Shown: positions 673 through 16,718 of the stretch, in pieces
Layout: each line of letters opens with the position of its first letter
Position numbering within the stretch: position 1 is the first letter of the stretch
Assembly: GCA_048500095.1 (NCBI GenBank)
Contig: JASNYQ010000003.1
Coordinates: 77,510 to 141,509 of the forward strand
DNA: 64,000 nt
Direction: 5' to 3'
From: Thermoanaerobaculia bacterium
GTDB taxonomy: Bacteria > Acidobacteriota > Thermoanaerobaculia > Multivoradales > JAGPDF01
The notes under the pieces: model-generated
What the model was told of the DNA's origin: nothing
The model's input: only the letters and a program-made list of their open reading frames with translations
Database searches by the model: none
Made by a program: the position numbers and the translations under genes

Positions 673-2516
673 GGGGACTCCTCGAAGCTGCGCACGACGA
701 GCAGCGGCGCGTCGCCGGTGCGCGAGACCAGGCGGCCGGCGATGCCGTCGAGCGCGACCTCGCCGGCCCCCTTCGGGAGCGGCACGCCGAGCACCAGCAG
801 ATCGTGGCCGCCGGCCAGGGCGGCGAGAATCTCCTCCTCGGTGGCGCCGAGCCCGAGGCGCGTCTCGGTCGCCACCCCGAGCGGCTCGAGGGTGCGCGCG
901 CTCGCCTGCAGGAAGCGCTCGGCCTGGGCGCGGGCGACGGCGGGGCTCGACTCGGGGAGCACCGTGAGCACCGTGACGCCGGCCCCGAGATGGCGCACGA
1001 GGCGGCCGGTGAACGCCACGTCCTCCTTGCCCGGCTCGCCGACCGCGGCGCAGACCAGCACGCGAGCGGGGAGCGGACGCGGGCCGCGCACCAACAGCAG
1101 GTGGTGGTCGCCCGAGGCGAGCAGGCTCTCGGCGAGCGGGGTGCCCCGCCCCGCGGGGGCGCCCGCGATCACGAGGTCGGGCCCGGTGAGCCGGGCGGCC
1201 TCCGGCACCGCCGCCACCGCGCCACCGCGCGCCGGGCGGAAGGTGAGCTCGCCGAGGCCGCGCCCGAGCCGCTCGCGGGCGGTCGCCTCGTCGAGTCCGG
1301 CCAGGATCACTGCCAGCCGGGCGTGCGTGCGCCGGGCGAGCTCGCCGGCGAAGGCGACCGCCTCGAGCCCTTCCGCCGAGGGCTCGGCGAGGAGCAGGAA
1401 CTGGAGACCCGGGTGGGCGAGGGCGTGGAGGCGGCGCACCGCGACGCGGACCGGATCGCCGGGGGCGAGGGGCAGCTTCCGGGCCTCGTGCGGCGGCCGG
1501 CTGGCGACCACCGCGAAGGCGCCCGCCCCGAACGGCACCGGCGGGGCGATCGCGCGCACCCCCACGAACGGCGGCAGCCGCAGCCGCAGATGCTCGAAGG
1601 CGCCCGCGAAGGAGCAGCTCTCGACCGTGCCCGTGCCCAGGACCGGGAGCGCCCCTGCCTCCTGCTCGCCGAGCAGGGCGACGTCCTCGGGGCGGAACAG
1701 GACCTGCACCCGCCGGCGCGCCGGCTCGGACTCCCCGCGGTGCTCGAGCGGGAAGTCGACGGGGCCGATGCGGACCCCCTGCTCGGTCGCCTCGCCCACC
1801 AGGAGGTTGGCGGCGCCGAGGAAGGTGGCCACGAACTCCGTCTGCGGGCGCAGGTAGAGCTCGCGCGGCGGCCCCACCTCGACCAGCCGGCCGAGCGCCA
1901 TCACCGCGATCCGGTCGCCGAGCGCGAACGCCTCCTCCTGGTCGTGGGTCACGAACAGGGTGGCGATGCCGAGCTCGCGCTGGATCTCGCGCAGGCTGCG
2001 GCGTAGCTCGGTGCGGATGCGGGCGTCGAGGGCGCCGAACGGCTCGTCGAGGAGCAGCACCTCGGGCCGGTGGGCCAGCGCGCGGGCGAGCGCCACCCGC
2101 TGCTGCTGGCCGCCGGAGAGCTGCCGCGGCAACCGCTTGCCGAGGCCCGCGAGGCCGACCAGCTCGAGCAGCTCCTCGACCCGGTGGCGGCGCTCGGCGC
2201 GCGCCACGCCGCGCACCGCGAGCGCGAAGCCGACGTTCTCGGCCACCGTCATGCCGCGGAAGAGGGCGTAGCTCTGGAAGACGAAGCCGGCGCCGCGCGC
2301 CTGGGGGGGGAGCTCCGAGACGTCGCGGCCGTGCAGGAAGACGCGTCCCCGGTCGGCCGCGAGCAGGCCGGCGATGATCCGCAGCACCGTGCTCTTGCCG
2401 CTGCCGGAGGGTCCGAGCAGCACGCAGAGCTCGCCCGCCGGCAGCTCGAGCGAGAAGTCGGAGACGACGGGATGCCCGTCGTAGAGCTTCGCGAGGCCTT
2501 CGAGGCGGATCGACAC
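669..2516 (-). CDS. ABC transporter ATP-binding protein (CysA/PotA-like, TOBE-type domain) fused to two C-terminal universal-stress-protein-like domains
   Basis: 615-aa ORF. It has Walker A GPSGSGKST, signature LSGGQQQRVALARAL and Walker B LLLDEPFGALD. A TOBE-like beta segment follows (VQVLFRPEDVALL...). The C-terminus carries two USP-like repeats ending DLVIAGAP...HHLLLVR and DLLVLGVP...APLLVVR. Confidence 0.85.
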   Translation of the reverse strand: MSIRLEGLAKLYDGHPVVSDFSLELPAGELCVLLGPSGSGKSTVLRIIAGLLAADRGRVFLHGRDVSELPPQARGAGFVFQSYALFRGMTVAENVGFALAVRGVARAERRHRVEELLELVGLAGLGKRLPRQLSGGQQQRVALARALAHRPEVLLLDEPFGALDARIRTELRRSLREIQRELGIATLFVTHDQEEAFALGDRIAVMALGRLVEVGPPRELYLRPQTEFVATFLGAANLLVGEATEQGVRIGPVDFPLEHRGESEPARRRVQVLFRPEDVALLGEQEAGALPVLGTGTVESCSFAGAFEHLRLRLPPFVGVRAIAPPVPFGAGAFAVVASRPPHEARKLPLAPGDPVRVAVRRLHALAHPGLQFLLLAEPSAEGLEAVAFAGELARRTHARLAVILAGLDEATARERLGRGLGELTFRPARGGAVAAVPEAARLTGPDLVIAGAPAGRGTPLAESLLASGDHHLLLVRGPRPLPARVLVCAAVGEPGKEDVAFTGRLVRHLGAGVTVLTVLPESSPAVARAQAERFLQASARTLEPLGVATETRLGLGATEEEILAALAGGHDLLVLGVPLPKGAGEVALDGIAGRLVSRTGDAPLLVVRSFEESP

Positions 2517-2586
2517 CGGGCGCTCCCGTCCCGGAGCCTATCCGGCGGGAGGACCTCCTGTCAGGCGAGCGGAAGAGCGGAGACGG

Positions 2587-2612
2587 CGAGGGCCCCGTCG
2601 CCGGGGCCCTCG
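2587..2612 (-). terminator. GC-rich hairpin downstream of the metallopeptidase gene (possible terminator, no U-tract)
   Basis: Perfect 11-bp stem cgagggccccg / cggggccctcg (2587-2597 / 2602-2612) with a 4-nt loop, 26 nt after the stop at 2638. Confidence 0.3.
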
Positions 2613-2637
2613 GGGTGCGGGCGGGAGGAGCCGGATC

Positions 2638-3330
2638 TCAGTCGCGGCGGCCGCCGAGCAGGCCGGCGCGGAAGAGGAAGTAGAGCAGCGTGAGCAGGGT
2701 CGAGATCGCGGCCGCGACGTAGGTGAGGGCGGCGGCGTTGAGCACCCGGTCCATCCCCTCCCGCTCCTGCGGCATCACGATCCCCTGGGCGACCGCCAGC
2801 TGCTTGGCGCGGGCCGAGGCGTCGAACTCCACCGGCAGGGTGACGATCTGGAAGAGGAGCACGGCCGAGAAGAGCACGGCGCCGAAGAGGACCATGTTCA
2901 CCGAGGAGAGGAAGATCCCGAAGACCATCACCAGGTAGCCGAGCGTCGAGCCGATGTTGGCGGTCGGCACCAGCAGCGAGCGCAGCGCCAGCGGCCCGTA
3001 CTTCGTGGCGTGCTGGATGGCGTGGCCGGCCTCGTGGCAGGCGACGCCGACGGCGGCGATCGAGGGCACGCCGTAGACCTGCTCGGAGAGCGCCAGCGTC
3101 TTGGTCATCGGGTTGTAGTGGTCGGTCAGCATCCCCCGGTGGGCGACCACCTTCACGTCCCGGATGCCGGCGCTCGCCAGCAGGCGCTCGGCCGCCTCGG
3201 CGCCGGTCAGGCCGGTGGCCACGCGCACCTTGGAGTACTTGTTGAAGGCGCTCTTGGTGCGGAAGCTCGCCCAGAGCGAGAGCAGCAGGGCCGGGGCGAG
3301 GAAGACGAAGTAGATCGGGTCGAACATCAT
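2638..3330 (-). CDS. YugP-type neutral zinc metallopeptidase (Zn_peptidase_2 family membrane protein)
   Basis: Real start taken at MMFDPIYF (ATGATG at 3330-3325). HEAGHAIQH zinc motif and hydrophobic N- and C-terminal helices. The 285-aa upstream extension of track ORF 2638..4188 is R/P/A-rich and was rejected. Confidence 0.85.
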   Translation of the reverse strand: MMFDPIYFVFLAPALLLSLWASFRTKSAFNKYSKVRVATGLTGAEAAERLLASAGIRDVKVVAHRGMLTDHYNPMTKTLALSEQVYGVPSIAAVGVACHEAGHAIQHATKYGPLALRSLLVPTANIGSTLGYLVMVFGIFLSSVNMVLFGAVLFSAVLLFQIVTLPVEFDASARAKQLAVAQGIVMPQEREGMDRVLNAAALTYVAAAISTLLTLLYFLFRAGLLGGRRD

Positions 3331-3494
3331 GGCGTCGGGTACCTCCGAGTCACCCTGGGGAACGGGGCCGGGGGAGCGGATATTCCGCGCCGCCGGCCGG
3401 CGCCGGGCGGGTCCTTCCGGGACCCCTCCCTCGCCGCATTCTACGTGGCCCGCCGCGGGGCGGATCGCGGGGGCGCGCGGCGCCTGCCGCCCCC

Positions 3495-4661
3495 TCAGGC
3501 GAGGGCGAAGCGCGCGGCGAGGCCGTCGGCCACCGCCAGGCCCCGCGGCGTCGGCCGCAGCCGGCCGCCGGCGAGCTCCGCCAGGCCGTCGGCCGCCAGC
3601 TGGGCGAGGAGCGCCCGGTTGGCGGCGGCGAGATCGAGGCCGTAGCGCTCCCGGAACCGCGCGAGGTCGATCCCCTCGGCGGTGCGCAGGCCGAGGAGCA
3701 CCGTCTCCAGCCGCAGCGCGGCGAGGTCGAGCGTCTCCTCCCCGGCCAGCGGGCGCTCCCCGGCCGCCACCTGGGCCGTCCAGGGGCGGATCTTCCGCTC
3801 GTTCCACCAGCGCCGCGCCCCGCGCTCGTCCCAGGCGAACGAGTGCGCCCCCAGGCCGATCCCGAGGTACGGCGTGTGGTTCCAGTACTTGCGGTTGTGC
3901 CGGGAGCGGTGCTCGGGTCGGCGGGCGAAGTTGGAGACCTCGTAGGCGGGAAAGCCAAGCAAAGACAAGACTTTCTGGGTAAGGGAGAAGAGGCGGGCCT
4001 GGGCCGGTTCGGGGGCCTCGGCGAGCTCGCCGCGCGCTGCCCGGTATCCGAAGGGGGTGCGCTCGTGGATCGTGAGCTGGTAGCAGGAGAGGTGGTGGGG
4101 GGCGAGCGCGACGGCGGTCTCCAGGTTCCGCCGCCACGCTTCCTCGCTCTGGCCGGGCAGGCCGTAGATCAGGTCGAGCGAGACCCAAGGGAACCCGGCG
4201 GCCAGGGCGGTGCGCACGGAGGAGGCTCCCTGGTCCGGGTCATGTCCCCTACCCAGAAAAGCGAGGTCGGCCGCGTCGAAGGACTGGACCCCGAGCGAGA
4301 GGGCCGCGATGCCGAGATCCCGCCACTCGATGCAGGCCTCCGGTGTGACGTGCTCGGGGTTCGCCTCCAGGGTGATCCAGGCGTCGGGGCGGGCGCCGAG
4401 CAGGTCGCGCGCGCCTTCCAGCAGCCGTCCGATCTCCTGCGGCGGGGCGAGGGAGGGGGTGCCGCCGCCGAGGTAGACGGTGTCGAAGGCGGCGCCGGCG
4501 AAACTCCCCTCGGCGCGCGCCAGGCGCATCTCGGCGAGCAGCAGGTCGACGTGGGCGGCGAGCTGCGCCGGGCGGCCGGGCAGGACCGCGAAGTCGCAGT
4601 AGGGGCAGATCCGGGCGCAGTAGGGGAGGTGGAGGTAGAGCCCGGGGGCGGCGATCGCTAC
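3495..4661 (-). CDS. hemW: Radical SAM heme chaperone HemW (HemN-like oxygen-independent coproporphyrinogen oxidase family)
   Basis: LYLHLPYCARICPYCDF radical-SAM CxxxCxxC motif, YLGGGTPS, and a HemN_C-like tail. Classic position directly after lepA. The start is uncertain: there is no ATG/GTG/TTG between 4661 and 4799, and the nearest in-frame GTG is at 4802-4800, inside lepA. Confidence 0.85.
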   Translation of the reverse strand, partial: VAIAAPGLYLHLPYCARICPYCDFAVLPGRPAQLAAHVDLLLAEMRLARAEGSFAGAAFDTVYLGGGTPSLAPPQEIGRLLEGARDLLGARPDAWITLEANPEHVTPEACIEWRDLGIAALSLGVQSFDAADLAFLGRGHDPDQGASSVRTALAAGFPWVSLDLIYGLPGQSEEAWRRNLETAVALAPHHLSCYQLTIHERTPFGYRAARGELAEAPEPAQARLFSLTQKVLSLLGFPAYEVSNFARRPEHRSRHNRKYWNHTPYLGIGLGAHSFAWDERGARRWWNERKIRPWTAQVAAGERPLAGEETLDLAALRLETVLLGLRTAEGIDLARFRERYGLDLAAANRALLAQLAADGLAELAGGRLRPTPRGLAVADGLAARFALA

Positions 4662-6496
4662 GCCTCCTCCTCGTCGGAGCGCAGCACGGCGACGAACGCC
4701 TCCTGCGGGATCTCGACCGCGCCGACGATCTTCATCCGCTTCTTGCCCTCCTTCTGCTTCTCGAGCAGCTTGCGCTTGCGGCTGATGTCGCCGCCGTAGC
4801 ACTTGGCGGTGACGTCCTTGCGGTAGGCGTTGATCGTGGTGCGGGCGATGATCTGGCCGCCGATCGCCCCCTGCACCGCGATCTTGAACTGCTGGCGCGG
4901 GATCGTCTTGGCCAGCCGCTCGCAGTAGCGCAGCGCCCGCGGCCGCGCGAACTCCCGGTGCACGAGCTGGGAGAGCGCGTCCACCTTCTCGCCGTTGACC
5001 AGGATGTCGACTTTCACCAGGTCCCCCGGCCGGTAGTCGACGAGCTCGTAGTCGAACGAGCCGTACCCCTGGGTGATCGACTTCAGGCGGTCGTAGAAGT
5101 CGAAGAGCACCTCGGCCAGCGGCAGCTCGCTCGTCATCTCGATCCGCCCGGCGGCGACGTAGTTGAACGTCGGCTGGCTGCCGCGCCGCTCGCGGCAGAG
5201 CTCCATCACCGTGCCGAGGTAGCGCTCGGGCATCCAGAGGGAGGCCCGGATGTACGGCTCGTGGACCTGCTTGATCGCCGACGGGTCGGGGTAGTAGCTG
5301 GGGTTGTCGACCTCGATCTCGCGGCCCTCCTCGAGCTCGACCCGGTAGCGGACCGAGGGGGCGGTGAGGATGAGCGAGAGGCCGTACTCGCGCTCGAGCC
5401 GCTCCTGCACCACGTCGAGGTGGAGGAGGCCGAGGAAGCCGCAGCGGAAGCCGAAGCCGAGCGCGGCCGAGGAGTCCTTCTCGTAGATCAGCGCCGCGTC
5501 GTTGAGCTTCAGCTTCTCGAGCGCCTTGGTCAGCTCCTCGTAGTCGTCGGTGGCCATCGGGTAGATCGAGGAGAAGACCACCGGCTTGGCCTCCCGGTAG
5601 CCGGGGACCGGCCCGGCGGCGGGGCGCGCCGACTCGGTCAGGGTGTCGCCGATGGCCAGACCGGCGAGGCTCTTGATGCCGGCGATGACGTAGCCGACCT
5701 CGCCCGCCACGAGCTCGTCGGAGGGCACCCGCTTCAGGCGCAGCCGGCCCACCTCCTCGACCCGGTGCTCGGCGTCCGAGTGCATCAGGCGCACCGTCAG
5801 CCCCGGGCGCAGCCGCCCGGCCATCACCCGCACGAGCAGGACCGCGCCGCGGTACGGGTCGTACTGGGCGTCGAAGAGGAGCGCCTGGAGGGGCGCCTCC
5901 GGGTCGCCCTGCGGGGCGGGCAGGTGGGCGACGATCGCCTCGAGCAGCTCGTCGACCCCGGTGCCGAGCTTGGCCGAGACCTGCACCGAGGCGAACGGGT
6001 CGAGGCCGAGGTCGCGGTCGATCTCCTCCATGGCGCGCTCGACGTCGGCCGACGGGAGGTCGATCTTGTTGATCACCGGCAGCACCTCGAGGCCGTACTC
6101 GACCGCGAGGAAGAGGTTGGCGACGGTCTGCGCCTCCACCCCCTGCGAGGCGTCGACCACCAGGAGCGCCCCCTCGGCGGCCATCAGCGAGCGGCGCACC
6201 TCGTGGGAGAAGTCGACGTGCCCCGGGGTGTCGATGAGGTTGAGCTCGAAGCTGCGCCCGTCGCGCGCCGTGTAGGGGAGGCTGATGGTGTTCGACTTGA
6301 TGGTGATGCCGCGCTCGCGCTCCAGCTCCATGGTGTCGAGCAGCTGGTCGCGGAACTCCCGCGCCTCGACCCCGCCGCAGCGCTGGATCAGGCGGTCGGC
6401 GAGCGTCGACTTGCCGTGGTCGATGTGGGCGATGATGCAGAAGTTGCGGATCTGTTCCACGGTCGTAGGCGCCCCGCCCGGCGGGGCCGGGCGCAT
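4658..6496 (-). CDS. lepA: Translation elongation factor 4 (LepA)
   Basis: 612 aa. [22 protein letters not shown]1 motif, [13 protein letters not shown], and a conserved LepA C-terminal domain ([48 protein letters not shown]). Confidence 0.97.
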
Positions 6497-6532
6497 GATA
6501 CCCCGCCTCGGGAGGCCAGGGAGGAGCCTCGG

Positions 6533-7675
6533 TCAACCGGCACGGCGGGGGCGGCCGCCCTGGGCGGCGCCCGCGGGGCCCGGGGCGGCGAGCTCGGTGT
6601 TCGGCTGCTTGATCCGCGCCGACTCGTCGAGGCCGGAGACGATCTCGATCCGGATCCCGTCCGAGAGGCCGACCTCCACCGGCCGCTTCTCGAAGAGCTG
6701 CTCGCCGACCTCGACCTCGACGAAGGGCTTGCCGTCCTCGAACTGGAGCAGGCTCTCGTCGATCGCCAGCACGTCGTCGCGGCGGTCGAGGACGATGTCG
6801 GCGTTGGCGCTGTAGTTGGCGCGCAGGAAGAGGCCGGACTGCGGCGCGACGGCGGCCCGGATCTCGAACTGGATGGCGCCGCTGTCCTCGACCCCCTTGG
6901 GCGCGATGTGCTCGAGCGTGGCCTCGAAGGTGGCCCGCTCGATGGCGCCGATGGTCAGCAGCAGCTGCATGCCGGTGCGGATCTTGCCGACCTCCGACTC
7001 GTCGACCTTCCCCTTGAAGATCATGTCGTCCATGTCGGCGACGGTGGCGATGGTGGTGCCCTCGTTGAAGGTGTTCGCCTCGATCACCGAGCGGCCGAGC
7101 TCGACCGGCACTTCGAGCACCATGCCGGAGACGGTGGCGCGCACCAGGGTGTTGGTGGAGGTGGCGAGCTTGCCGGTCGTCCCCTTCTCGATGATGTCGA
7201 GGTTGTCGCGGGCGGCGGCGAGCTCCTCGCGCGCGGTGCGCAGCGCGATCTCGTACTGGTCGAGCTGGGCGCGGGAGACCGTCCCGTCGGCGAAGAGCGC
7301 GCGGTAGCGCCCGTGGTCGGCCTCCGCCTGCTCGAGCGCGATCTTGGCGCGCTCCACGCGGCTCTGGGCGGAGTTGAGGTTGACCATGTTCGGCACCACC
7401 CGCACCCGCGCCACGAGGTCGCCGGCCTTCACCAGCTGCCCCGCCTCGACGTGCAGCTGGTCGAGGATCCCGGAGACCTGCGGCTTGATCGCGACCTCCT
7501 GCCGGGGGACGACGGCGCCGGTGGCGACCGCCTTCTTGAGGATCGTCGAGCGCACCGGCGCCTCGGTGCGGAAGACCACCGGCGGCTTCTGCGAGCGCTT
7601 GTAGAGCAGGTAGCCGGAGCCGCCGACGGCGCCGAGGAAGAGGAGGGCGAGCAGGATACCGAAGAGCTTCTTCAT
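6533..7675 (-). CDS. Efflux periplasmic adaptor subunit (HlyD/MacA family)
   Basis: Start at [13 protein letters not shown] (ATG 7675-7673), which is a signal anchor. Biotinyl-lipoyl-like hairpin ([23 protein letters not shown]), a coiled-coil segment and beta-barrel domains. Last gene of the ABC efflux operon. Confidence 0.9.
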
Positions 7676-7677
7676 GG

Positions 7678-8952
<1,275 letters not shown>

Positions 8953-8959
8953 CGCGGGC

Positions 8960-10192
8960 TCATTCGTCGCGCAGCGCCTCGATCGGGCGGATGGCGGCGG
9001 CGCGGCGGGCGGGGAAGAAGCCGGCGAGCGCGCCGGCCACGACCAGCAGCAGGGTGGCCGAGAGGGCGACGCCGAGGTCGACCTGCGGGCTGCGGAAGAA
9101 GTCGGCCTCGGGCAGCGCGCGAGCGAGCCCCTCGAGGGTGAAGACGCCGAGCACGAGCCCGGCGTAGCCGGCGATGGCGGTGATCAGCACCGTCTCCTCG
9201 AGCACCAAACGGACCACCGAGAAGGGGGTGGCGCCGACCGCCTTGCGGATCCCGATCTCGCGCGTCCGCTCCTTGACCGCGATCATCATGATGTTCGAGA
9301 CCCCGACCACGCCGGCGACCAGGGTGCCGATGCCGACCACCCAGATGAACGCCCGGATCCCGGCCATGAGCGAGGCGAAGCGCTGGAAGTTCTCGACGTT
9401 GTTGGTGACGAACAGGGCGCGCGGGTCGGCGGGGTCGAAGAGGTGGCGGTTGGCGAGCAGCTCCTTGACCGAGAGCTCCATCTCCTGGCTCTCCTCGAGC
9501 GTCGCGTCGCCGGTGGTGAAGAGGATCTGGGCCAGCCGGTCGCGGCCGCCGAAGGCGCGCTGGGCGGTGGAGACCGGCACGTAGACGAGCTCGCGCTCCT
9601 GCTCGGAGCCGTCGTCGTCGAACACGCCGACGACCTGGAAGACGACGCCGTTGATCTCGATCTCGCGGCCGATCGCCGGGCTCTTGCCGAAGAGCGCCTC
9701 CGCGACGAGGGTGCCGATCACCGCGCTCTTGCGGAACTCGCGCTGGTCGAGCTCGTTGAGGAAGCGGCCCTGGCGGACCAGCGTCTTCTCGATGAACTGG
9801 TGGCCCGGGTGGACCGCCCGCACGCTGAAGTTCCCGCTCTCGTCGCGGTAGCGCACGATGGTCGAGCCGCGGATGAAGGCCCGGCCGCTCGAGTGCTCGA
9901 CGCCGGGGACGCGGTCGCGCACCGTGTCGTAGTCGCGGGTGTCGAACTGCACGTCGCGCCCCGGGCGCATCCCCTGGTGCGGCAGGCTGGTGCGGCCGGC
10001 GCGCACGAAGATCGAGTTCGTGGCGTCGTCCCGGAACTGGTACTCGACCCCCTGCTGAAGGCCCGTCCCCGAGCCCAGCAGGACGACCAGCATGAAGATC
10101 CCCCACGCCACCGAGAAGCCGGTGAGCGCGGTCCGCAGCTTGTTGCGGCGGACGGTGTCGAGGATCTCCTGCCAGAGGTCGAAGTCGATCAT
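8960..10192 (-). CDS. ABC transporter permease, MacB/FtsX family (paralog of 7678..8952)
   Basis: 410 aa with the same architecture. KERTREIGIRKAVGA motif. 4-nt overlap with the upstream ATPase gene. Confidence 0.9.
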   Translation of the reverse strand: MIDFDLWQEILDTVRRNKLRTALTGFSVAWGIFMLVVLLGSGTGLQQGVEYQFRDDATNSIFVRAGRTSLPHQGMRPGRDVQFDTRDYDTVRDRVPGVEHSSGRAFIRGSTIVRYRDESGNFSVRAVHPGHQFIEKTLVRQGRFLNELDQREFRKSAVIGTLVAEALFGKSPAIGREIEINGVVFQVVGVFDDDGSEQERELVYVPVSTAQRAFGGRDRLAQILFTTGDATLEESQEMELSVKELLANRHLFDPADPRALFVTNNVENFQRFASLMAGIRAFIWVVGIGTLVAGVVGVSNIMMIAVKERTREIGIRKAVGATPFSVVRLVLEETVLITAIAGYAGLVLGVFTLEGLARALPEADFFRSPQVDLGVALSATLLLVVAGALAGFFPARRAAAIRPIEALRDE

Positions 10193-11056: not shown

Positions 11057-12427
11057 TCAGTGGCCGCCCGCGACCGGGGGGCCGATGAGGGCGACGAGCT
11101 CGTCGCGCTTGGCGGCCATGAGCTCGGGGGTGGCGGCCTCGCAGACCAGGCGCAGCAGCGGCTCGGTGTTCGAGGGGCGGACGTTGCACCACCAGTCGGG
11201 GTACTGGATCGTGATCCCGTCGAGGTAGTCGATCTCGGCGTCGGCGTAGCGCGCCGCGAGCTGGCGGATCATCCCCTCCTTGTCCTCGACCTCGAAGTTG
11301 GTCTCCGGGGTCTTGGCGTAGCGGTGGAGGGGAGCGACGAGCTCGGACATCCGCTTGCCGGAGCCCCAGAGGAGGTTGAGCACCTCGACGACCGCCAGCA
11401 CCGCGCAGTCGGCGTAGTAGTTGTCCCGGAAGTAGTAGTGGCCGGCGAGCTCGCCGCCGAAGATGCCGGCGTGCTGGCGCAGGGTCGCCTTCATGAACGA
11501 GTGGCCGACCCGCTCGCGGACCGGGATCCCGCCCTGCTCGCGGATGTACTCGGCCACCGCGCGCGAGGAGCGCAGGTCGTAGAGGACGTGCTTGCCCGGC
11601 TCGCGGGAGAGGAGCTCGCCGCCGATCAAGCCCGTGATCAGGTCGGAGCCGATCGGCTCGCCGGTCTCGTCGACGAACGCCGAGCGGTCGTAGTCGCCGT
11701 CGCAGGAGACGCCGAGGTCGGCCCCGGTCTCGCGCACCTTGGCCATCAGGTCGCGGAGGTTCTCGAGCACCAGCGGGTTCGCCTCGTGGTTGGGGAAGGA
11801 GCCGTCGAGCTCGAAGTAGAGCGGAAGGATGTCGATCCCCATCGCCTCGAAGATCGGCCGGTCGATCGTCCCCATGCCGTTGGCGGCGTCGATCACCACC
11901 TTGAGCGGCCGCGCCCCGGCCGGGCGGCGCAGGAACGAGAGCACGTGCGCCTGGTAGGCGGCGAAGACGTCGGCGGTGGAGACGGAGCCGGGCGTCGCGG
12001 CGCGCGGCAGGTCCCCCTCGGCCACGCTCTTCTCGAGGAGCGGAATCCCGTGGTCCCCCGACACCGGCCGCGCCTCGTGCTTGCTGAACTTGAGGCCGTT
12101 GTACTGGGCCGGGTTGTGGGAGGCGGTGACCTGCACCCCGCCGGCCGCCTGCAGGTGGCCGATCGCGAAGTAGTTCATCGGCGTGGTGGCGAGGCCGATG
12201 TCGACGACGTCGAGCCCGGCGGCGGTCAGGCCCTCGATCAGGGCCGCGGTGAGCGGCACCGAGGAAGGCCGCATGTCGCGCGAGACGACCACCTTCGTCC
12301 CCCCGTGCGCGCGGTCCTCCGCGTCGAGCAGGTGGGAGAAGGCCACCCCGATGTCGCCGGCGATCGCCTCGTCGAGCTGGGTCGGGTAGATGCCGCGGAC
12401 GTCGTACGCCTTGTAGATACCGGCCAT
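11057..12427 (-). CDS. Phosphomannomutase/phosphoglucomutase (alpha-D-phosphohexomutase family)
   Basis: Start at MAGIYKAYDVRGIY (ATG 12427-12425). Active-site loop TASHNPAQYNGLK and metal-binding DGDYDR. The N-terminal extension of track ORF 11057..12982 was rejected. Confidence 0.92.
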   Translation of the reverse strand: MAGIYKAYDVRGIYPTQLDEAIAGDIGVAFSHLLDAEDRAHGGTKVVVSRDMRPSSVPLTAALIEGLTAAGLDVVDIGLATTPMNYFAIGHLQAAGGVQVTASHNPAQYNGLKFSKHEARPVSGDHGIPLLEKSVAEGDLPRAATPGSVSTADVFAAYQAHVLSFLRRPAGARPLKVVIDAANGMGTIDRPIFEAMGIDILPLYFELDGSFPNHEANPLVLENLRDLMAKVRETGADLGVSCDGDYDRSAFVDETGEPIGSDLITGLIGGELLSREPGKHVLYDLRSSRAVAEYIREQGGIPVRERVGHSFMKATLRQHAGIFGGELAGHYYFRDNYYADCAVLAVVEVLNLLWGSGKRMSELVAPLHRYAKTPETNFEVEDKEGMIRQLAARYADAEIDYLDGITIQYPDWWCNVRPSNTEPLLRLVCEAATPELMAAKRDELVALIGPPVAGGH

Positions 12428-12544
12428 GGTCGATCCTCGTCGGGAACCGGACGGGGCAGGCCGCCCGGGACCTGTGAGGTTATCAGCCCGCACCCGGACC
12501 GCGCCCGGAACCGGCCCGCCGGCCGACCGCGGGGCGCGAGACCG

Positions 12545-12846
12545 CCAGGCCAGGTCCCTCCCCTCCAAAGGCATGGAGGCCGCCAGCGCTCCCCCCGCCG
12601 GTCTCCGCCAGCTCGACCCGCTCCCCCACGAGCCCCGCCGCCGGCCTCGCCAAGCCGGCCTCCAGCCACACCCTTCGACACCGCTTCGCCACCCACCTGC
12701 TCGAGCCGAGCGACGACCTCCGCGCTGTCCAGGAGCTGCGCGGTCACCGCGACCTCGCGACCACCATGATCCACACCCACACCCTGAATCGCGGGGAGCG
12801 CGCCGTTCGCAGCCCGACCGGCGACCTCGGAGCACCGCCAGACTAG
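12545..12846 (+). pseudogene. Remnant of an integron-integrase-type (IntI-like) tyrosine recombinase, C-terminal ~70-100 codons only
   Basis: Own translation of the frame ending at TAG 12844-12846 gives [64 protein letters not shown]. This matches box II plus the NRG..V.SP tail typical of IntI proteins. The catalytic Tyr position reads His (cac). There is no start codon, upstream similarity (LPSKG.., RQLDP..) is in another frame, and the N-terminal two thirds are missing. The 5' limit is approximate. Confidence 0.6.
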
Positions 12847-12978
12847 ACGGCAGACCCCGTCGTGTTTGCCGCCGCCCGGCGGCTCGTGTACCATCGCCCA
12901 AGCTTCTGGAGATAAATGACTTCGGTGCCACGAGCCGCCAGCCACCGCGCCAGTTTCGACGGCCCTTTCTGCCGTCTA
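12844..12978. repeat. Nested long-range inverted repeat immediately after the integrase remnant
   Basis: Outer arms tagacggcaga (12844-12854) / tctgccgtcta (12968-12978) are 11/11 complementary. Next come ccgtcg (12857-12862) / cgacgg (12957-12962). The inner arms ggcggctcgtg (12878-12888) / cacgagccgcc (12929-12939) are 11/11 complementary, around an AT-richer 40-nt loop. Confidence 0.5.
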
Positions 12979-13043
12979 ACATCGCCCAAAGCCGTCGGCC
13001 GGTGTGATCGAATTACAAGTTGGGGCGACCCGAGGGAAGAACG

Positions 13044-13970
13044 ATGACGCGAGACTGGGAGAACGCTTTTTCCTTTTGGGCGCAGTCACCCAGCAACTCG
13101 GAGCAAGAGCGCACTGAGCGGGTTATCCGAGCCATCCGCACCGCCGTCAGCAACAGCCCCAAGTTGCAGGCGAGAAAGACTTTGGTCTTTGTGCAGGGCT
13201 CATTTCGTAACCGCGTCAATGTTCGTCGGGAGAGCGACGTCGATGTCGGTGTGATGCTCTACGAGTGCTTCCTCGCTCAGTATCCGAGCGGGAAGGCAGA
13301 CGCCGATTTTGGCAACTTCGACGCTAACTACCCGTTCTCTCAGTTCAAGGACGAACTTGAGGGGGCGCTCGTCGCGCACTTCGGTCGCGCGGCGGTGAAA
13401 CGCAGCAACAAGGCATTCGATATCAAGGCCGCACAAGCGCAGGTTGAAGCCGATGTCGTGCCACTGTTCGAGTTCAGGCAGTATTGGGAGAATGGGAGTT
13501 ACCGTGCCGGCGTAGCACTGATCCCAGACAACAGTAGCCGGCGTATCGTGAACTACCCTGAACGCCTCGTTGACTACTGGCCGCACACGCCTCTTCACTA
13601 CGAAAACGGTGTTTCTAAGAATGCCGTGACCCAACGGCGCTTCAAAGGCATGGTGCGCATCCTGAAGAAGCTGCGGATCGAACTGGCGGACGCAGGAAAC
13701 ACCCACGCTGCAAGCGTTCCTGGCTACCTGGCTGAGTGCCTGGTTTGGAACGCTCCAGACTGGTGCTTCGGGCACGCCACATGGGAGGAGCGCGTCCAGT
13801 CGGTACTGTGTTTCCTCTGGCAGAACACGAGGGAGCCGTCCCTTTGCACGGGGTGGTGCGAGGTCGATGCAATCAAGTACCTATTCCATGGCTCGCAGCC
13901 GTGGACGCGCGACCAGGCGCACGCCTTCGTCAACGAGGCATGGGACTTTGTCGGGGTGAAGCCCGTATGA
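13044..13970 (+). CDS. CBASS cyclic oligonucleotide synthase (CD-NTase / SMODS nucleotidyltransferase)
   Basis: 308 aa from ATG 13044, with GAGGGAAG 5 nt upstream. Pol-beta-type NTase signature G52-S53 (VFVQGSFRNR), D65-x-D67 (ESDVDVGV) and a third Asp in VEADVVPLF (D137). Helical C-terminal lobe. ATGA overlap with the next gene. Lower GC than the flanks. Confidence 0.85.
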   Translation: MTRDWENAFSFWAQSPSNSEQERTERVIRAIRTAVSNSPKLQARKTLVFVQGSFRNRVNVRRESDVDVGVMLYECFLAQYPSGKADADFGNFDANYPFSQFKDELEGALVAHFGRAAVKRSNKAFDIKAAQAQVEADVVPLFEFRQYWENGSYRAGVALIPDNSSRRIVNYPERLVDYWPHTPLHYENGVSKNAVTQRRFKGMVRILKKLRIELADAGNTHAASVPGYLAECLVWNAPDWCFGHATWEERVQSVLCFLWQNTREPSLCTGWCEVDAIKYLFHGSQPWTRDQAHAFVNEAWDFVGVKPV

Positions 13971-14626
13971 AGCTCGAGCGTCTCCAAATCACCGCCTTTG
14001 TCATCCTTGCGGCGGCCATCTGGCTGGCAGTACTCCTGTTCCAGGGTACGCCGGTCGAGTGGGTGCACGCCCAGCCATTCGGTATTGTGGTGAGCGCCTT
14101 GGTCGGTGTCGGCGTGCTTCTGGAGTTCGTGCTGTGGCGGCAGGCGTGGCTACACGGTTGGTTTATTGACCGCCCCGACCTTCGTGGTACGTGGCGCGTC
14201 GAGCTGCAGTCGAGCTACGGGCGGCCTGAGACCAACGAGCGTGTGCCGATGATCGTCTGCTACATGGGCGTGAAGCAGACCCTTTCGAAGCTCCAGATGC
14301 ATTTGATGACTCCCGAATCAGAGTCTTGGCTTGTCGCTGACCACGTTCGGCCGTCCCCCAGCGGCCACGGCTTCCAAGTGATTGGGGTCTATTCCAATGA
14401 ACCTAACGTTCATCTCCGACACGAGCGGATCAGCGAGATGCACCAAGGGGCCATCATCGTCGAAACTCATGGGCCTAGCCTCCGGCCAACGACGCTAACA
14501 GCGAAGTACTGGACTGACCGCCAGACCACAGGAACAATGGAGTTCACCGTCCGCATCAACGACCTGTGCACGCGATTCGAAGACGCTCAAACCTCACTCT
14601 CGGCGCACGAAGGCAAGAATGCCTGA
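13967..14626 (+). CDS. CBASS effector, 2-TM + beta-strand-rich C-terminal domain (Cap15 / S-2TMbeta-like)
   Basis: 219 aa from ATG 13967. Two N-terminal TM helices (ITAFVILAAAIWLAVLLF, FGIVVSALVGVGVLLEFVLW). A beta-rich domain follows, starting LRGTWRVEL and ending AKYWTDRQTTGTMEFTV, as in SMODS-associated 2TM-beta effectors. Confidence 0.75.
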   Translation: MKLERLQITAFVILAAAIWLAVLLFQGTPVEWVHAQPFGIVVSALVGVGVLLEFVLWRQAWLHGWFIDRPDLRGTWRVELQSSYGRPETNERVPMIVCYMGVKQTLSKLQMHLMTPESESWLVADHVRPSPSGHGFQVIGVYSNEPNVHLRHERISEMHQGAIIVETHGPSLRPTTLTAKYWTDRQTTGTMEFTVRINDLCTRFEDAQTSLSAHEGKNA

Positions 14627-14653
14627 CTCGACGGCGTGGGCGCGTCACGTGCG

Positions 14654-14713
14654 TCCTAACAACAGCATGCAGCGGCCGGCGCTCCGCGCCGCCGCTGATG
14701 CTGAGCGTTAGGC
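14654..14713 (+). other. attC-like integron recombination site (cassette boundary)
   Basis: TCCTAAC (R''-like, 14654-14660) and GTTAGGC (R', matches GTTRRRY, 14707-14713). Stem pairs are cctaac/gttagg, cagcat/atgctg and cagcggc/gccgctg, with an unpaired spacer (aa vs agc), one extrahelical G (14670) and a 14-nt apical region. It lies 28 nt after the Cap15-like stop and 13 nt before the next ATG. Confidence 0.6.
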
Positions 14714-14725
14714 GCCAGAGGAACC

Positions 14726-15811
14726 ATGGCCCTTTCACGACCTCTTCTTGAACGACTGATCGCAGCGAAGTACCTCTTAAGGGCGGCGCGCGAAACGGTA
14801 GCCACCCACAGTCCGTACCGCGCAGGACGAGCAGTTCTTCATCTTCAGGACGCTGCCGAGATGCTTCTGCGAGTTGCTGCTGAACACCTTCATGCGCAGG
14901 TTTCGGAGAAGAGCGCCTTCGATCAGCTCGTCGAGGCTGTGGTGAAAGCCGCTCCAGTCCCACTCACGCATCGCACCGCGCTGAATCAACTCAACAAGGC
15001 ACGAGTTGCCTTCAAGCATTTCGGCCTCGAACCAAAGCCAGAGGACGTTGCAAAGGTGCTGGCAGACATGGACAGTTTCTTTCCAGAGACCGTGCAGTCG
15101 ATCCTTGGCGCCGACCTCGCTGAACTCAGTCTTAGGTCGCTGGTCGGCCACAGGCGGACCGAGAACTGGCTTGCAAAGGCAGAGCAAGCCCTCGCCGCAG
15201 GGGACTTCGATGCCTCCATCAATGCCTCGGCGGTCGCATTCGCGGTGATTCGCCATCACTGCGCTGGCACACACGACTTCTCCCGGCTGGATCCCTCTGG
15301 TCGTTTCAGGGAAGGCGAGTTGCGCGCGGCCCTTGAGGCAGTAGAGCAGAAGTTCAAGGCGCTAGAGGCGGACCTTGACCTGTTTGCGCTCGGCGTTGAC
15401 CCCGCCGAGTACAGGCGATTCAGAAGGTACACGCCACGCGCGAGGCTTACGATGGCTGCGACCGTTATTCTCCAGAGGGGAATGAGCGAGACGCCGGTAG
15501 TAGGAGCCGATGAAGCGGCGTTTTGTGCCCGGTTTACGCTAGACGCGGCACTCGCAATGCAGTCAAACATCCTCCCGCCACGCTGGCCGATTCCGCGACC
15601 GGACAAAGCGGTCCGCGTTGTTCGCGAATGCGATCTCGTCGTCTGGCCTGGGGAGGGCGCGGAAGTGATCCGCCAGGTGAGCGTCGGTGAGCAACTGGCG
15701 GCCTTCTCAGGAGGCAGGCAATTGGACGGGCACATACAAGTCGTCGAATCTGGAGACGGCGCGTTCGTCCCGGCAGACGCGGTGGAGGAAGGTGGGTCCG
15801 CTGGCGCCTGA
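14726..15811 (+). CDS. Hypothetical protein; helical N-terminal domain with HEPN-like Rx4H motif, second helical domain, SH3-like C-terminus (no confident family assignment)
   Basis: 361-aa ORF with ATG 13 nt after the attC-like GTTAGGC. LNKARVAFKHFG (R93-x4-H98, nt 15002-15019). The C-terminal ~60 aa are beta-rich (VVRECDLVVWPGEGAEVIRQVSVGEQL...GHIQVVESGDGAFVPADAV). The composition looks coding and is not R/P-rich. Confidence 0.7.
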   Translation: MALSRPLLERLIAAKYLLRAARETVATHSPYRAGRAVLHLQDAAEMLLRVAAEHLHAQVSEKSAFDQLVEAVVKAAPVPLTHRTALNQLNKARVAFKHFGLEPKPEDVAKVLADMDSFFPETVQSILGADLAELSLRSLVGHRRTENWLAKAEQALAAGDFDASINASAVAFAVIRHHCAGTHDFSRLDPSGRFREGELRAALEAVEQKFKALEADLDLFALGVDPAEYRRFRRYTPRARLTMAATVILQRGMSETPVVGADEAAFCARFTLDAALAMQSNILPPRWPIPRPDKAVRVVRECDLVVWPGEGAEVIRQVSVGEQLAAFSGGRQLDGHIQVVESGDGAFVPADAVEEGGSAGA

Positions 15812-15921
15812 CAGCTATCAGGCCCCCTCTTGTCAAGGGGTAGGCGATCCCCAGGGCGGGCGTTGAGCCAGCCGAGCTGGTTGAAGGACTGCCTCCCTAC
15901 CTGATCGTCGCTGACTTCGCT

Positions 15922-16211
15922 TCACGTTCTGGTGCGGCGCTTCTGGCGCATGCCGAGGGCGTGGCCGGGGGCGAAGGCGATGCTCTCGTCCTCGCAGAGA
16001 TCGGCGAGCCAGTACCAGCAGAAGATGCACTCGCAGCCGACGACGAGGCCGTCGCGGAAGGGCGCCGGTGCCTCGAGCACGGCCCCGGGTTGCACGGCAG
16101 ATAGCGATGCAGGACAATCTGACCGGAGCCGTCGAGCAGACAGAGGTAGAGGGCGCGCCCGTGGAGATCGACGCCGCAGGCGAACGCGTGGGACCGGGAA
16201 TGGAATCGCAT
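15922..16211 (-). pseudogene. IS110-family transposase, N-terminal fragment with frameshift (truncated)
   Basis: From ATG 16211 the translation is MRFHSRSHAFACGVDLHGRALYLCLLDGSGQIVLHRYLPCNPGP. After a frameshift near 16080 it continues VLEAPAPFRDGLVVGCECIFCWYWLADLCEDESIAFAPGHALGMRQ, then a stop at 15922-15924. This is the DEDD_Tnp_IS110 N-domain pattern, and the C-terminal catalytic half is absent. Weak degenerate similarity may continue to about 15815. Confidence 0.7.
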
Positions 16212-16304
16212 GCAGTGCCTCCTCTGGCTTGCGTGAGTGCCACCGCGAGAGCTACCGCGTGGGTAGCCCCAGAGGGGGCCTGCATGGGCTTCAAGCCGAT
16301 GAGG

Positions 16305-16351
16305 CCGACCGTCGCTTGCGGCGCCCGCAGCTCATCGGCAGGGCGTTAGGC
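16305..16351 (+). other. Partial/degenerate attC-like site (right half with R' GTTAGGC)
   Basis: GTTAGGC at 16345-16351, 17 nt before the next start codon. L-box-like pair gccgatgag (16305-16313) / ctcatcggc (16331-16339). No matching RYYYAAC partner on the left, where IS110-derived sequence begins. Confidence 0.35.
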
Positions 16352-16367
16352 GGCGTTACGATCGGTT

Positions 16368-16718
16368 GTGGACTTCGCCTACTCCGCAGGGCTGCTGATG
16401 TCTCTGCTTGGTGGTGCTGCCTCATTGGTCTGTCTATTCAGCGCAGCGGTGCTGCGTTCCAGCGCGGTTGCAGCGCGAATGCGCGTGGCGGGCTCAGCGC
16501 TTCTCGCTCTTGGGTTCGTTTCCTGTGTAGTTGCGCTCGTTGTCCACCGTGTCTGGGGTCATGGCGCCCGGAGCCCCGAGCCGATGCACCTCCGGCAGTT
16601 TCTCGGCAGCCATCCCGCTTTCGTCATTGTGGGCTGCTTGCTCCTCGCGGGGTTCCTACTGATTCTCGTCGCGCGTGCGAAGAGCGCCCGGCACGAGCGC
16701 TCTCGAGACGCCGCCTGA
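16368..16718 (+). CDS. Small membrane protein (3 predicted TM helices), hypothetical
   Basis: 116 aa with a GTG start. Hydrophobic segments GLLMSLLGGAASLVCLFSAAVL, SALLALGFVSCVVALVV and AFVIVGCLLLAGFLLILV, then a basic tail. Confidence 0.5.
   Translation: MDFAYSAGLLMSLLGGAASLVCLFSAAVLRSSAVAARMRVAGSALLALGFVSCVVALVVHRVWGHGARSPEPMHLRQFLGSHPAFVIVGCLLLAGFLLILVARAKSARHERSRDAA

Follow-up and report, generated by a model that had tools for sequence, protein, structure and literature searches.

A probable minimal CdnE-Cap15 type I CBASS operon packaged as an orphan integron cassette in a Thermoanaerobaculia genome

A stretch of 64,000 nucleotides from a Thermoanaerobaculia bacterium (assembly GCA_048500095.1, contig JASNYQ010000003.1, positions 77,510 to 141,509 of the forward strand; the whole stretch is hereafter called the window) contains a pair of overlapping genes at 13,044–14,626 that raises two questions: what the two proteins are, and how the pair came to lie where it does. 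An initial annotation, made from the sequence alone, had proposed a minimal type I cyclic oligonucleotide-based antiphage signalling system (CBASS), consisting of a cGAS/DncV-like nucleotidyltransferase (CD-NTase) and a Cap15-like effector, carried on a two-gene integron cassette of roughly 1.7 kb. Our analysis leads to the same view, namely that the two genes very probably form a minimal type I CBASS operon and together make up a single integron gene cassette, present here as an orphan with no integrase nearby. The first open reading frame (ORF1; 13,044–13,970, plus strand) runs from an ATG at 13,044 to a stop codon at 13,968–13,970 and encodes 308 amino acids, and the second (ORF2; 13,967–14,626, plus strand) begins with an ATG at 13,967 and encodes 219. 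The two frames are co-directional, and the start of ORF2 overlaps the stop of ORF1 through the ATGA at 13,967–13,970, an overlap that had been placed correctly at the outset, as had every other coordinate claimed for the pair.

Comparison of ORF1 with PADLOC-DB yielded matches to 14 "Cyclase" models, the best of which (PDLC00801, 1.1e-107) covers the protein at full length. Among PDB sequences searched with phmmer, the five best were ClCdnE (2.3e-62, residues 5–301 of ORF1 on residues 5–291 of ClCdnE), LpCdnE (1.1e-53), EfCdnE (7.2e-53), EmCdnE (1e-30) and RmCdnE (1e-27). The catalytic residues are Q51-G52-S53, D65-V-D67 and D137; G52-S53, D65-x-D67 and D137 align with the equivalent residues of ClCdnE and LpCdnE, so the catalytic set first read from the letters is borne out. 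A Pfam scan of ORF1 returned no family, and precomputed annotation places PF26305 (CD_NTase_C) on ORF1 and on 120 of the 120 homologues listed. When the AlphaFold model was submitted to Foldseek, ClCdnE, LpCdnE and EfCdnE stood on top, and the best 50 matches listed were all CD-NTases or cGAS-like enzymes. Because this model is poor (predicted local distance difference test score, pLDDT, of 60), the structural argument for ORF1 rests on its alignment to solved structures. By these alignments ORF1 is a clade-E CD-NTase with both lobes, the clade being assigned from the nearest PDB sequences.

The residues that set nucleotide specificity in the closest enzymes can also be traced in ORF1. According to PMC10442399, ClCdnE, LpCdnE and EfCdnE are cyclic di-pyrimidine synthases that make cUU/cUC, all from type I operons with Cap15. 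The determinants named there are a lid-1 asparagine that hydrogen-bonds uracil in the acceptor site, Gln51, and a glutamate plus an (R/Q)xW motif on a C-terminal loop that shuts the donor pocket to purines. The corresponding residues of ORF1 are Q51, N170, E273 and Q285-P-W287, and H185 is counted among its specificity residues as well. In the phmmer alignment N170, E273 and Q285-P-W287 fall on N169, E263 and R275-x-W277 of ClCdnE and on N173, E262 and Q274-x-W276 of LpCdnE, the gate of ORF1 being the LpCdnE-like "QxW" version. Both the catalytic and the specificity residues are invariant in 29 homologues of 67–94% identity. Because the uracil-lid Asn170 and the pyrimidine gate Glu273/Gln285-x-Trp287 are retained, the signal predicted by homology is most likely cyclic di-UMP, possibly with UMP-CMP. 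The clade of the synthase, which the initial annotation had called unknown, can thus be given as E by its closest PDB sequences, with the determinants of cyclic di-pyrimidine synthesis in place.

ORF2 matched 16 "2TM effector" models of PADLOC-DB, the best (PDLC00694, 1.3e-57) at full length, and passed the Pfam model PF18153 (Cap15_CD_rec, the Cap15 cyclic-dinucleotide receptor domain) with 48.1 bits against a gathering threshold of 31.2. Two hydrophobic segments lie at about residues 5–30 and 36–58 (Kyte-Doolittle values above 2 over 19 residues), and the AlphaFold model (pLDDT 76) shows helices at residues 3–25 and 32–54 followed by eight beta strands and a C-terminal helix. With this model the top three Foldseek matches in the PDB were chains of Yersinia aleksiciae Cap15 (YaCap15; 7N34/7N35), with target-normalised TM-scores of 0.78–0.83; they were also the sole matches below 1e-3, that to 7N34 having an E value of 1.5e-6 and a TM-score of 0.83. 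The profile match and the model together identify ORF2 as a Cap15-family effector with two N-terminal transmembrane helices and a beta-barrel domain predicted to receive a cyclic dinucleotide, which is the architecture originally proposed. One detail of that proposal needs adjustment: the beta domain had been said to end in AKYWTDRQTTGTMEF, and this sequence is indeed present, but at residues 179–193, close to the end of the beta domain and not at the end of the protein.

Nothing else appears to belong to the system. Neither PADLOC nor the annotation of the neighbours revealed Cap2/Cap3, HORMA/TRIP13 or any other ancillary gene on either side of the pair, the downstream ORF has no PADLOC match, and by blastn the unit common to different genomes holds just the two genes. 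A minimal type I CBASS, as first suggested, therefore accounts for the cyclase and effector matches, the full-length CdnE alignment and the Cap15 fold. Both genes in the window are intact and under purifying selection between copies, with dN/dS values against three or four other copies of 0.10–0.25 for the CD-NTase gene and 0.13–0.28 for the Cap15 gene.

We then turn to the packaging of the pair. Downstream of ORF2, 27 nt past its stop codon, lies a 60-nt imperfect palindrome, TCCTAAC...GTTAGGC (14,654–14,713, plus strand), with the features of an attC recombination site: an R'' box TCCTAAC, an L''/L' stem with bulged bases, and an R' box GTTAGGC, 6 of whose 7 bases are complementary to R'', the crossover point falling between G14707 and T14708. 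Folded as single-stranded DNA, its bottom strand reaches −26.7 kcal/mol (z = −6.2), a value equalled by none of 200 shuffled sequences, and the bulged bases are on one arm, the arm expected for an attC. At the other end, 24 nt ahead of the ORF1 start, stands a 5' core site GTTGGGG (13,019–13,025, plus strand), with the boundary between G13019 and T13020. The core motif GTTRRRY is not enriched in the window (29 found against 29.8 expected) and alone is uninformative for that reason, so the case is carried by the hairpin and by boundaries established through comparison.

A covariance model was built from 13 attC sites, the window attC among them, and 8 of the 12 stem pairs show compensatory changes across these sites. 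The model scores the window attC at 72 bits on the plus strand and 24 bits on the minus strand, which is not an independent result as the site is in the training set. In relatives of the cassette found in other genomes (designated L003 to L021 where they must be told apart), it reported 4 sites in L007 and 11 in L004, the latter all in one orientation and spread over 9 kb, with 7 of the 11 lying outside the training set; among loci fetched later it found 2 sites in L019 (64.5 and 54.9 bits) and 2 in L021. A homologous attC closes the same cassette in L003, L005 and L019, and that of L019, with its 64.5 bits, was not used in training.

The limits of the unit emerge from four close relatives aligned by blastn: a Betaproteobacteria metagenome-assembled genome (MAG; L003) matches the window over 13,015–14,713 at 94% identity, a Lysobacterales MAG (L004) over 13,019–14,660 at 93%, an Acidobacteriota MAG (L005) over 13,019–14,709 at 86%, and a Spirochaetaceae contig (L011) from 13,019 to the contig end at 86%. 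On the right, nucleotide homology stops at the GTT of the 14,654–14,713 site in L003 and L005, and earlier in L004. On the left, a multiple alignment has conserved columns from the GTT onward (GTTAGGAcgacCcgagagaagaacgATG) and is unalignable upstream, the 5' core of the relatives reading GTTAGGA or GTTGGGA. What precedes this GTT differs among the six loci compared. In L004, L005 and L011 it is preceded by three unrelated attC hairpins (in an xxxTAAC...GTTAGGA frame), and in the window, L003 and L019 by DNA that is not attC. Moreover, the R'' box of the cassette, TCCTAAC, is the exact complement of GTTAGGA, as the junction of the rejoined circle would read in L004, L005 and L011. Comparison of sequences thus proves the limits of the cassette to the nucleotide, as the G/TT of GTTGGGG and the G/TT of the attC. 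The cassette occupies 13,020–14,707 (plus strand), starting with the TT of the 5' core and ending with the G of the R' box, and its 1688 bp agree with the size and the two end points first proposed. An integron integrase would recombine the folded bottom strand of the attC at G/TT and so excise a 1688-bp circle, which could re-insert at attI, at another attC or at a genomic GWT site.

The same cassette is found in genuine integrons elsewhere. A scan of one genome per species gave ten loci with relatives, and those in arrays are accompanied by 4 to 11 attC sites. L011 is a complete integron in which intI, on the opposite strand, is followed by a GNAT cassette that ends in an attC and, in second place, by the CBASS cassette; its intI matches TIGR02249 with 172 and 201 bits on the two sides of a frameshift (model positions 2–164 and 171–315). 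In L007, L008 and L009, at 68–70% nucleotide identity, the pair ends in an attC that the covariance model confirms, and in L020 and L021 an attC after the pair was judged by eye, the model not reporting those sites. The most distant copies, L010 and L012 (62–65% nucleotide identity), hold a pair that is not closed by attC. At 86–94% nucleotide identity the cassette family has members in MAGs classified as Betaproteobacteria, Gammaproteobacteria (Lysobacterales), Acidobacteriota, Actinomycetota and Spirochaetota; environmental MAGs from at least five phyla carry it, a range that errors in MAG binning could inflate. On plasmids the closest relatives of the synthase are below 50% identity, the best being 48.5% identical. 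The integron route would have carried the near-identical copies into these distant lineages.

Several observations weigh against reading the window copy as a working cassette. In six frames of the 64-kb window we found no credible intI or tyrosine-recombinase box motif, although a search by regular expression is a weak test. With its filters off, the covariance model reported the attC at 14,654–14,713 and no second site in the window. The DNA just upstream of 13,019 folds no better than expected (z = −0.3), has no covariance-model match and is not an attC. Since the copy has no intI motif, a single attC and non-attC DNA upstream, it stands outside any integron and may be immobile. The 5' core of the window reads TTGGGG and not TTAGGA, so that, on excision, the R box of the bottom strand would contain two mismatches. 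A sigma-70 consensus scan of 12,400–16,400 found no promoter for the cassette, other promoter types being possible in the host. Relatives also carry lesions: the L003 synthase (8001–8140) has an early in-frame stop, its frame resuming at 8139, and the L004 Cap15 gene (8924–9580) has one in-frame stop, changes that may reflect decay in arrays or assembly errors. The proposal that the whole module moves as one cassette accordingly holds for the family, but the window copy has neither an integrase motif nor an upstream attC, and its mobility would need IntI supplied in trans. The locus is best described as an orphan cassette, which Loot et al. would call a SALIN (single attC site lacking an integron integrase); the term for clusters of such sites (CALIN), which calls for at least two attC sites, does not apply.

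Two further searches around the orphan attC bear on its isolation. A home-made scanner for R''/R' boxes combined with folding found, beyond 14,654–14,713, just high-GC coding background. We also considered 12,960–13,025 as a short degenerate attC (GTCTAAC...GTTGGGG) and rejected it, given its z of −0.3 and the lack of a model match; it has no homology to the region upstream in L019 either.

How, then, did the cassette reach this locus? The base composition changes abruptly at the left junction, GC content falling from 75% to 58% at 13,019, staying at 57–63% to about 15,700 and at 64–69% to about 18,100, and thereafter exceeding 73%; the flanking genome has 70–80% GC and the cassette 57–63%. 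Because GC stays low past the attC, we regard the cassette as the first element of a larger foreign island of about 3–5 kb. We lean towards the locus being the decayed end of a chromosomal integron or CALIN, that is, an array of at least two cassettes from which insertion sequence (IS) insertion and deletion removed the integrase and most of the attC sites. The low-GC island at about 13,019–16,350 (57–68% GC), with intermediate GC to 18,100, is in keeping with such an array, and the next ORF starts 13 nt past the attC with its own ribosome-binding site, in the manner of a cassette gene. Further along, a remnant of the N terminus of an IS110-family transposase (16,086–16,211, minus strand; tblastn against plasmids, residues 1–42, 45–49% identity to annotated IS110-family transposases, E values 9e-7 to 8e-9) lies beside a half-hairpin and GTTAGGC at 16,295–16,351 (plus strand). 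The latter consists of a 9-bp inverted repeat, GCCGATGAG/CTCATCGGC (16,295–16,303 and 16,331–16,339), followed by a GTTAGGC at 16,345–16,351 that has no R'' partner and is the only other one on the plus strand. IS1111-attC elements target attC sites, and the half-hairpin could be the relic of an attC destroyed by such an attC-targeting IS1111/IS110-type element. The IS1111-attC group is mentioned among IS1111/IS110-type elements in PMC11187229.

Not all the evidence favours a decayed array. Even with its filters off, the covariance model reports just the one attC; the candidate relic folds no better than shuffled sequences; homologues of the next ORF are not flanked by attC in five other loci; and the window holds no integrase remnant, as far as a regular-expression search can tell. 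The region 16,285–16,351 was accordingly rejected as a second attC, the covariance model being silent there and the fold giving z = −0.8, and is kept as a possible relic.

The other route is direct insertion of the cassette circle by an integrase at a genomic GWT site outside any integron (attC × attG), the cassette never having been part of an integron in this lineage. We consider this possible but distinctly less probable. It would explain why the window has no intI motif and no upstream attC, and why the left junction is a bare GTT in host-like DNA of 72–75% GC. L003 has the same junction, with a single attC, upstream DNA that is not attC and surrounding genes that look like housekeeping genes, and so does L019, where a GTTGGGA junction follows non-attC DNA, with 255 nt of upstream sequence only. 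Insertions at attG sites and single "SALIN" cassettes have been documented both experimentally and in genomes (Loot et al., bioRxiv 10.1101/2022.09.11.507474). Yet foreign low-GC DNA runs 1.6–3.4 kb beyond the attC, so more than the cassette arrived; the R' box is a perfect GTTAGGC, with 6 of 7 bases complementary to R'', which is easier to reconcile with a following cassette than with arbitrary genomic sequence; and the second GTTAGGC with its half hairpin and the IS110 remnant (16,086–16,351) suggest a two-cassette array in decay. We therefore prefer the decayed array to attG insertion because foreign DNA continues past the attC and the right core is a perfect GTTAGGC.

The bare-GTT junctions invite a broader idea, which we put forward tentatively, that the CdnE-Cap15 unit is an unusually promiscuous cassette and that its bare-GTT copies are independent attC × attG insertions seeding stand-alone abortive-infection modules. 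At least two copies, those of the window and L003, lie outside any integron against a bare GTT. If the idea is right, integrases seed abortive-infection modules, and perhaps nucleate defence islands, in lineages with no integron of their own.

If the pair acts as its relatives do, the clade-E CD-NTase would stay inactive until phage infection; in the staphylococcal CdnE03-Cap15 system the trigger is structured phage RNA (PMC10686824). The activated synthase would make a cyclic dinucleotide, most likely cyclic di-UMP or UMP-CMP, to be bound by the beta-barrel of the co-translated Cap15-like protein, whose two-helix membrane anchor would oligomerise and breach the inner membrane, and the infected cell would die before the phage cycle completes. 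Ligand-induced oligomerisation and membrane disruption by Cap15 were described in work on YaCap15 and Ssc-Cap15, cited in PMC10686824 and PMC12657218. An inverted logic like that of Panoptes, in which a nucleotide made constitutively restrains the 2TM beta-barrel effector and phage nucleotide sponges release it, deserves consideration, as the S-2TM-beta family holds both the ligand-activated Cap15 and the ligand-inhibited OptE (PMC12657218) and the direction of the switch cannot be read from sequence alone. Nevertheless, this inverted logic is very unlikely here: although Panoptes OptS-OptE is likewise a two-gene unit of nucleotide synthase and S-2TM-beta effector, Panoptes synthases are mCpol (minimal CRISPR polymerase) domains, whereas ORF1 is a CD-NTase that aligns at full length with CdnE enzymes; the best matches of ORF2 are the Pfam family Cap15_CD_rec and the YaCap15 structure; and the nearest characterised operons, in which ClCdnE, LpCdnE and EfCdnE accompany Cap15, count as type I CBASS (PMC10442399). 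Least credible of all is that ORF1 is a non-signalling nucleotidyltransferase of the MNT antitoxin or KNT type that merely adjoins a membrane protein, a reading that could appeal to the Pol-beta GS...DxD...D signature, which alone is common to many nucleotidyltransferases, and to the empty Pfam scan, but that is refuted by the 14 PADLOC cyclase models, by an alignment with CdnE structures that takes in the C-terminal lobe and the lid residues, by PF26305 on ORF1 and the 120 listed homologues, and by the Foldseek result.

Ligand-activated type I CBASS of the CdnE-Cap15 kind, well characterised both structurally and functionally (PMC10442399; PMC10686824; structures 7N34/7N35), is the system to which the pair is closest. 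With the operons of ClCdnE, LpCdnE and EfCdnE, with YaCap15 and with CdnE03-Cap15 of Staphylococcus schleiferi, it shares a two-gene operon in which the gene for a 2TM beta-barrel effector comes after that for a clade-E CD-NTase, the absence of ancillary genes, the catalytic triad, the lid-1 asparagine, the (R/Q)xW gate and the YaCap15 fold. It differs in sequence, structural alignment giving only about 36% identity between ORF1 and the solved CdnE enzymes and about 24% between ORF2 and YaCap15; compared with ClCdnE, moreover, ORF1 has 10 extra residues, L175–L184, inserted between lids 1 and 2. It also differs in being packaged with an attC, of which the available published descriptions of these operons make no mention.

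The packaging too has precedents. The cassette brc135 is a two-ORF phage-resistance integron cassette resembling type I CBASS, whose attC recombines strand-specifically and which confers protection from phage as well as from prophage induction (Kieffer et al., bioRxiv 10.1101/2024.07.02.601719). Compared by description only, it resembles the window unit in combining a nucleotidyltransferase and a membrane protein in one cassette outside a mobile integron. In the available text of a survey of integron defences (Darracq et al., bioRxiv 10.1101/2024.07.02.601686), 783 systems are reported, each of at most two genes and 73% of them in Vibrio, and the common ones named there are toxin-antitoxin systems, Shedu, AbiV and PD-T7-4, CBASS not being among them. 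Set beside the defences of sedentary chromosomal integrons as that text presents them, the window unit, with two overlapping genes in 1.7 kb, fits the rule of at most two genes, but those defences are mostly from Vibrio, whereas the family described here occurs in environmental MAGs of at least five phyla. The SALIN elements of Loot et al. (bioRxiv 10.1101/2022.09.11.507474) are similar in consisting of one coding unit with a single attC, no integrase or other att site nearby and a bare-GTT left junction; in the window, by contrast, the attC is followed by further foreign DNA and a possible relic of a second site, which makes a decayed array at least as likely.

Both the system and its integron packaging have therefore already been described, and the window pair is a clean further example, with no new mechanism or element class. 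Its interest is modest and lies in the spread across phyla at 86–94% nucleotide identity and in the repeated bare-GTT junctions. What it offers is a complete cyclic-nucleotide immune system in 1.7 kb, mobilised as a family by integron recombination and bounded at nucleotide resolution, together with a concrete prediction of its signal, a cyclic di-pyrimidine. It supports the recent view of integrons as libraries of compact phage defences and, going beyond Vibrio and the mobile integrons of clinical strains, extends it to Acidobacteriota-like genomes from the environment.

The surroundings of the cassette in the window can be described briefly. The 24-nt leader between the 5' core and ORF1 holds only a ribosome-binding site, the Shine-Dalgarno-like GAGGGAAG read from the sequence at 13,032–13,039 (plus strand), and is kept in the relatives by multiple alignment. 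The upstream neighbour is a phosphoglucomutase/phosphomannomutase (PGM/PMM) gene on the opposite strand, and between this pmm gene and the cassette junction lies a 590-bp, apparently non-coding stretch (12,428–13,018) of host-like 68–75% GC with no family match; any promoter for the cassette would have to come from this region by read-through. Rfam and tRNA scans found nothing close to the island.

Next after the cassette in the low-GC island, and outside the CBASS unit, is a HEPN-like ORF of a rare family (14,726–15,811, plus strand; 361 amino acids); its N terminus matches HEPN weakly (PF05168, E = 0.0098), and RVAFKH in its sequence is an RX4H motif. Among 5.8 billion proteins it has 25 homologues, including a 99% match in a Thermoanaerobaculia MAG. 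The neighbours of these homologues are ParE-like, MazE or Zeta-toxin genes, an integrase fragment or ParAB, and in five loci there is no attC beside them. We rejected the 361-residue ORF as a cassette or CBASS accessory: it has no PADLOC match, its homologues lack attC and the homology between copies ends at 14,713. It could encode a further small defence protein or toxin. Beyond it, Pfam and NCBIfam gave no match for the IS-like fragment.

Some features of the other loci deserve mention in their own right. In L003, a direct repeat, GGGATGTTAACA(A/G)GCG, occurs twice at 7900–7975 before the GTT junction, where an attC would stand; it recalls the integrase-binding direct repeats of attI, and no integrase lies within 8 kb. 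L018, a Vibrio alginolyticus contig, carries a 70%-identical copy outside the chromosomal integron, without an attC by the covariance model, among TrbL, relaxase, NikA-like, RepA_C and AlpA genes, as is typical for an element of the integrative or conjugative kind. L012 is a Marinacidobacterales chromosome in which a CRISPR array (5150–7990), where the 36-nt repeat GCTCAACGAAGGCCGGGGCATCAACCCCGGCGACAC recurs at least 38 times at a period of about 74, ends directly upstream of the distant (62%) CdnE-Cap15 pair that has no attC. In L019, an Actinomycetota MAG contig, the CBASS cassette is directly followed by a two-gene unit of 3.5 kb (1979–5610), encoding an AAA_11/AAA_30 helicase-like and a UvrD_C_2 protein and closed by a second strong attC (5553–5610, 54.9 bits), which makes it unusually large for a cassette; beyond it lie genes with SNF2/NOV_C, SLFN-AlbA_2 and DUF1156 domains in what looks like a defence island. 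Finally, in L021, from Alloalcanivorax, a gcvP-like gene is followed by two extra short ORFs with GcvP2_C matches (4978–5406 and 6299–6679) and then by the attC-flanked CBASS cassette, an arrangement that may reflect insertion at the 3' end of gcvP on more than one occasion.

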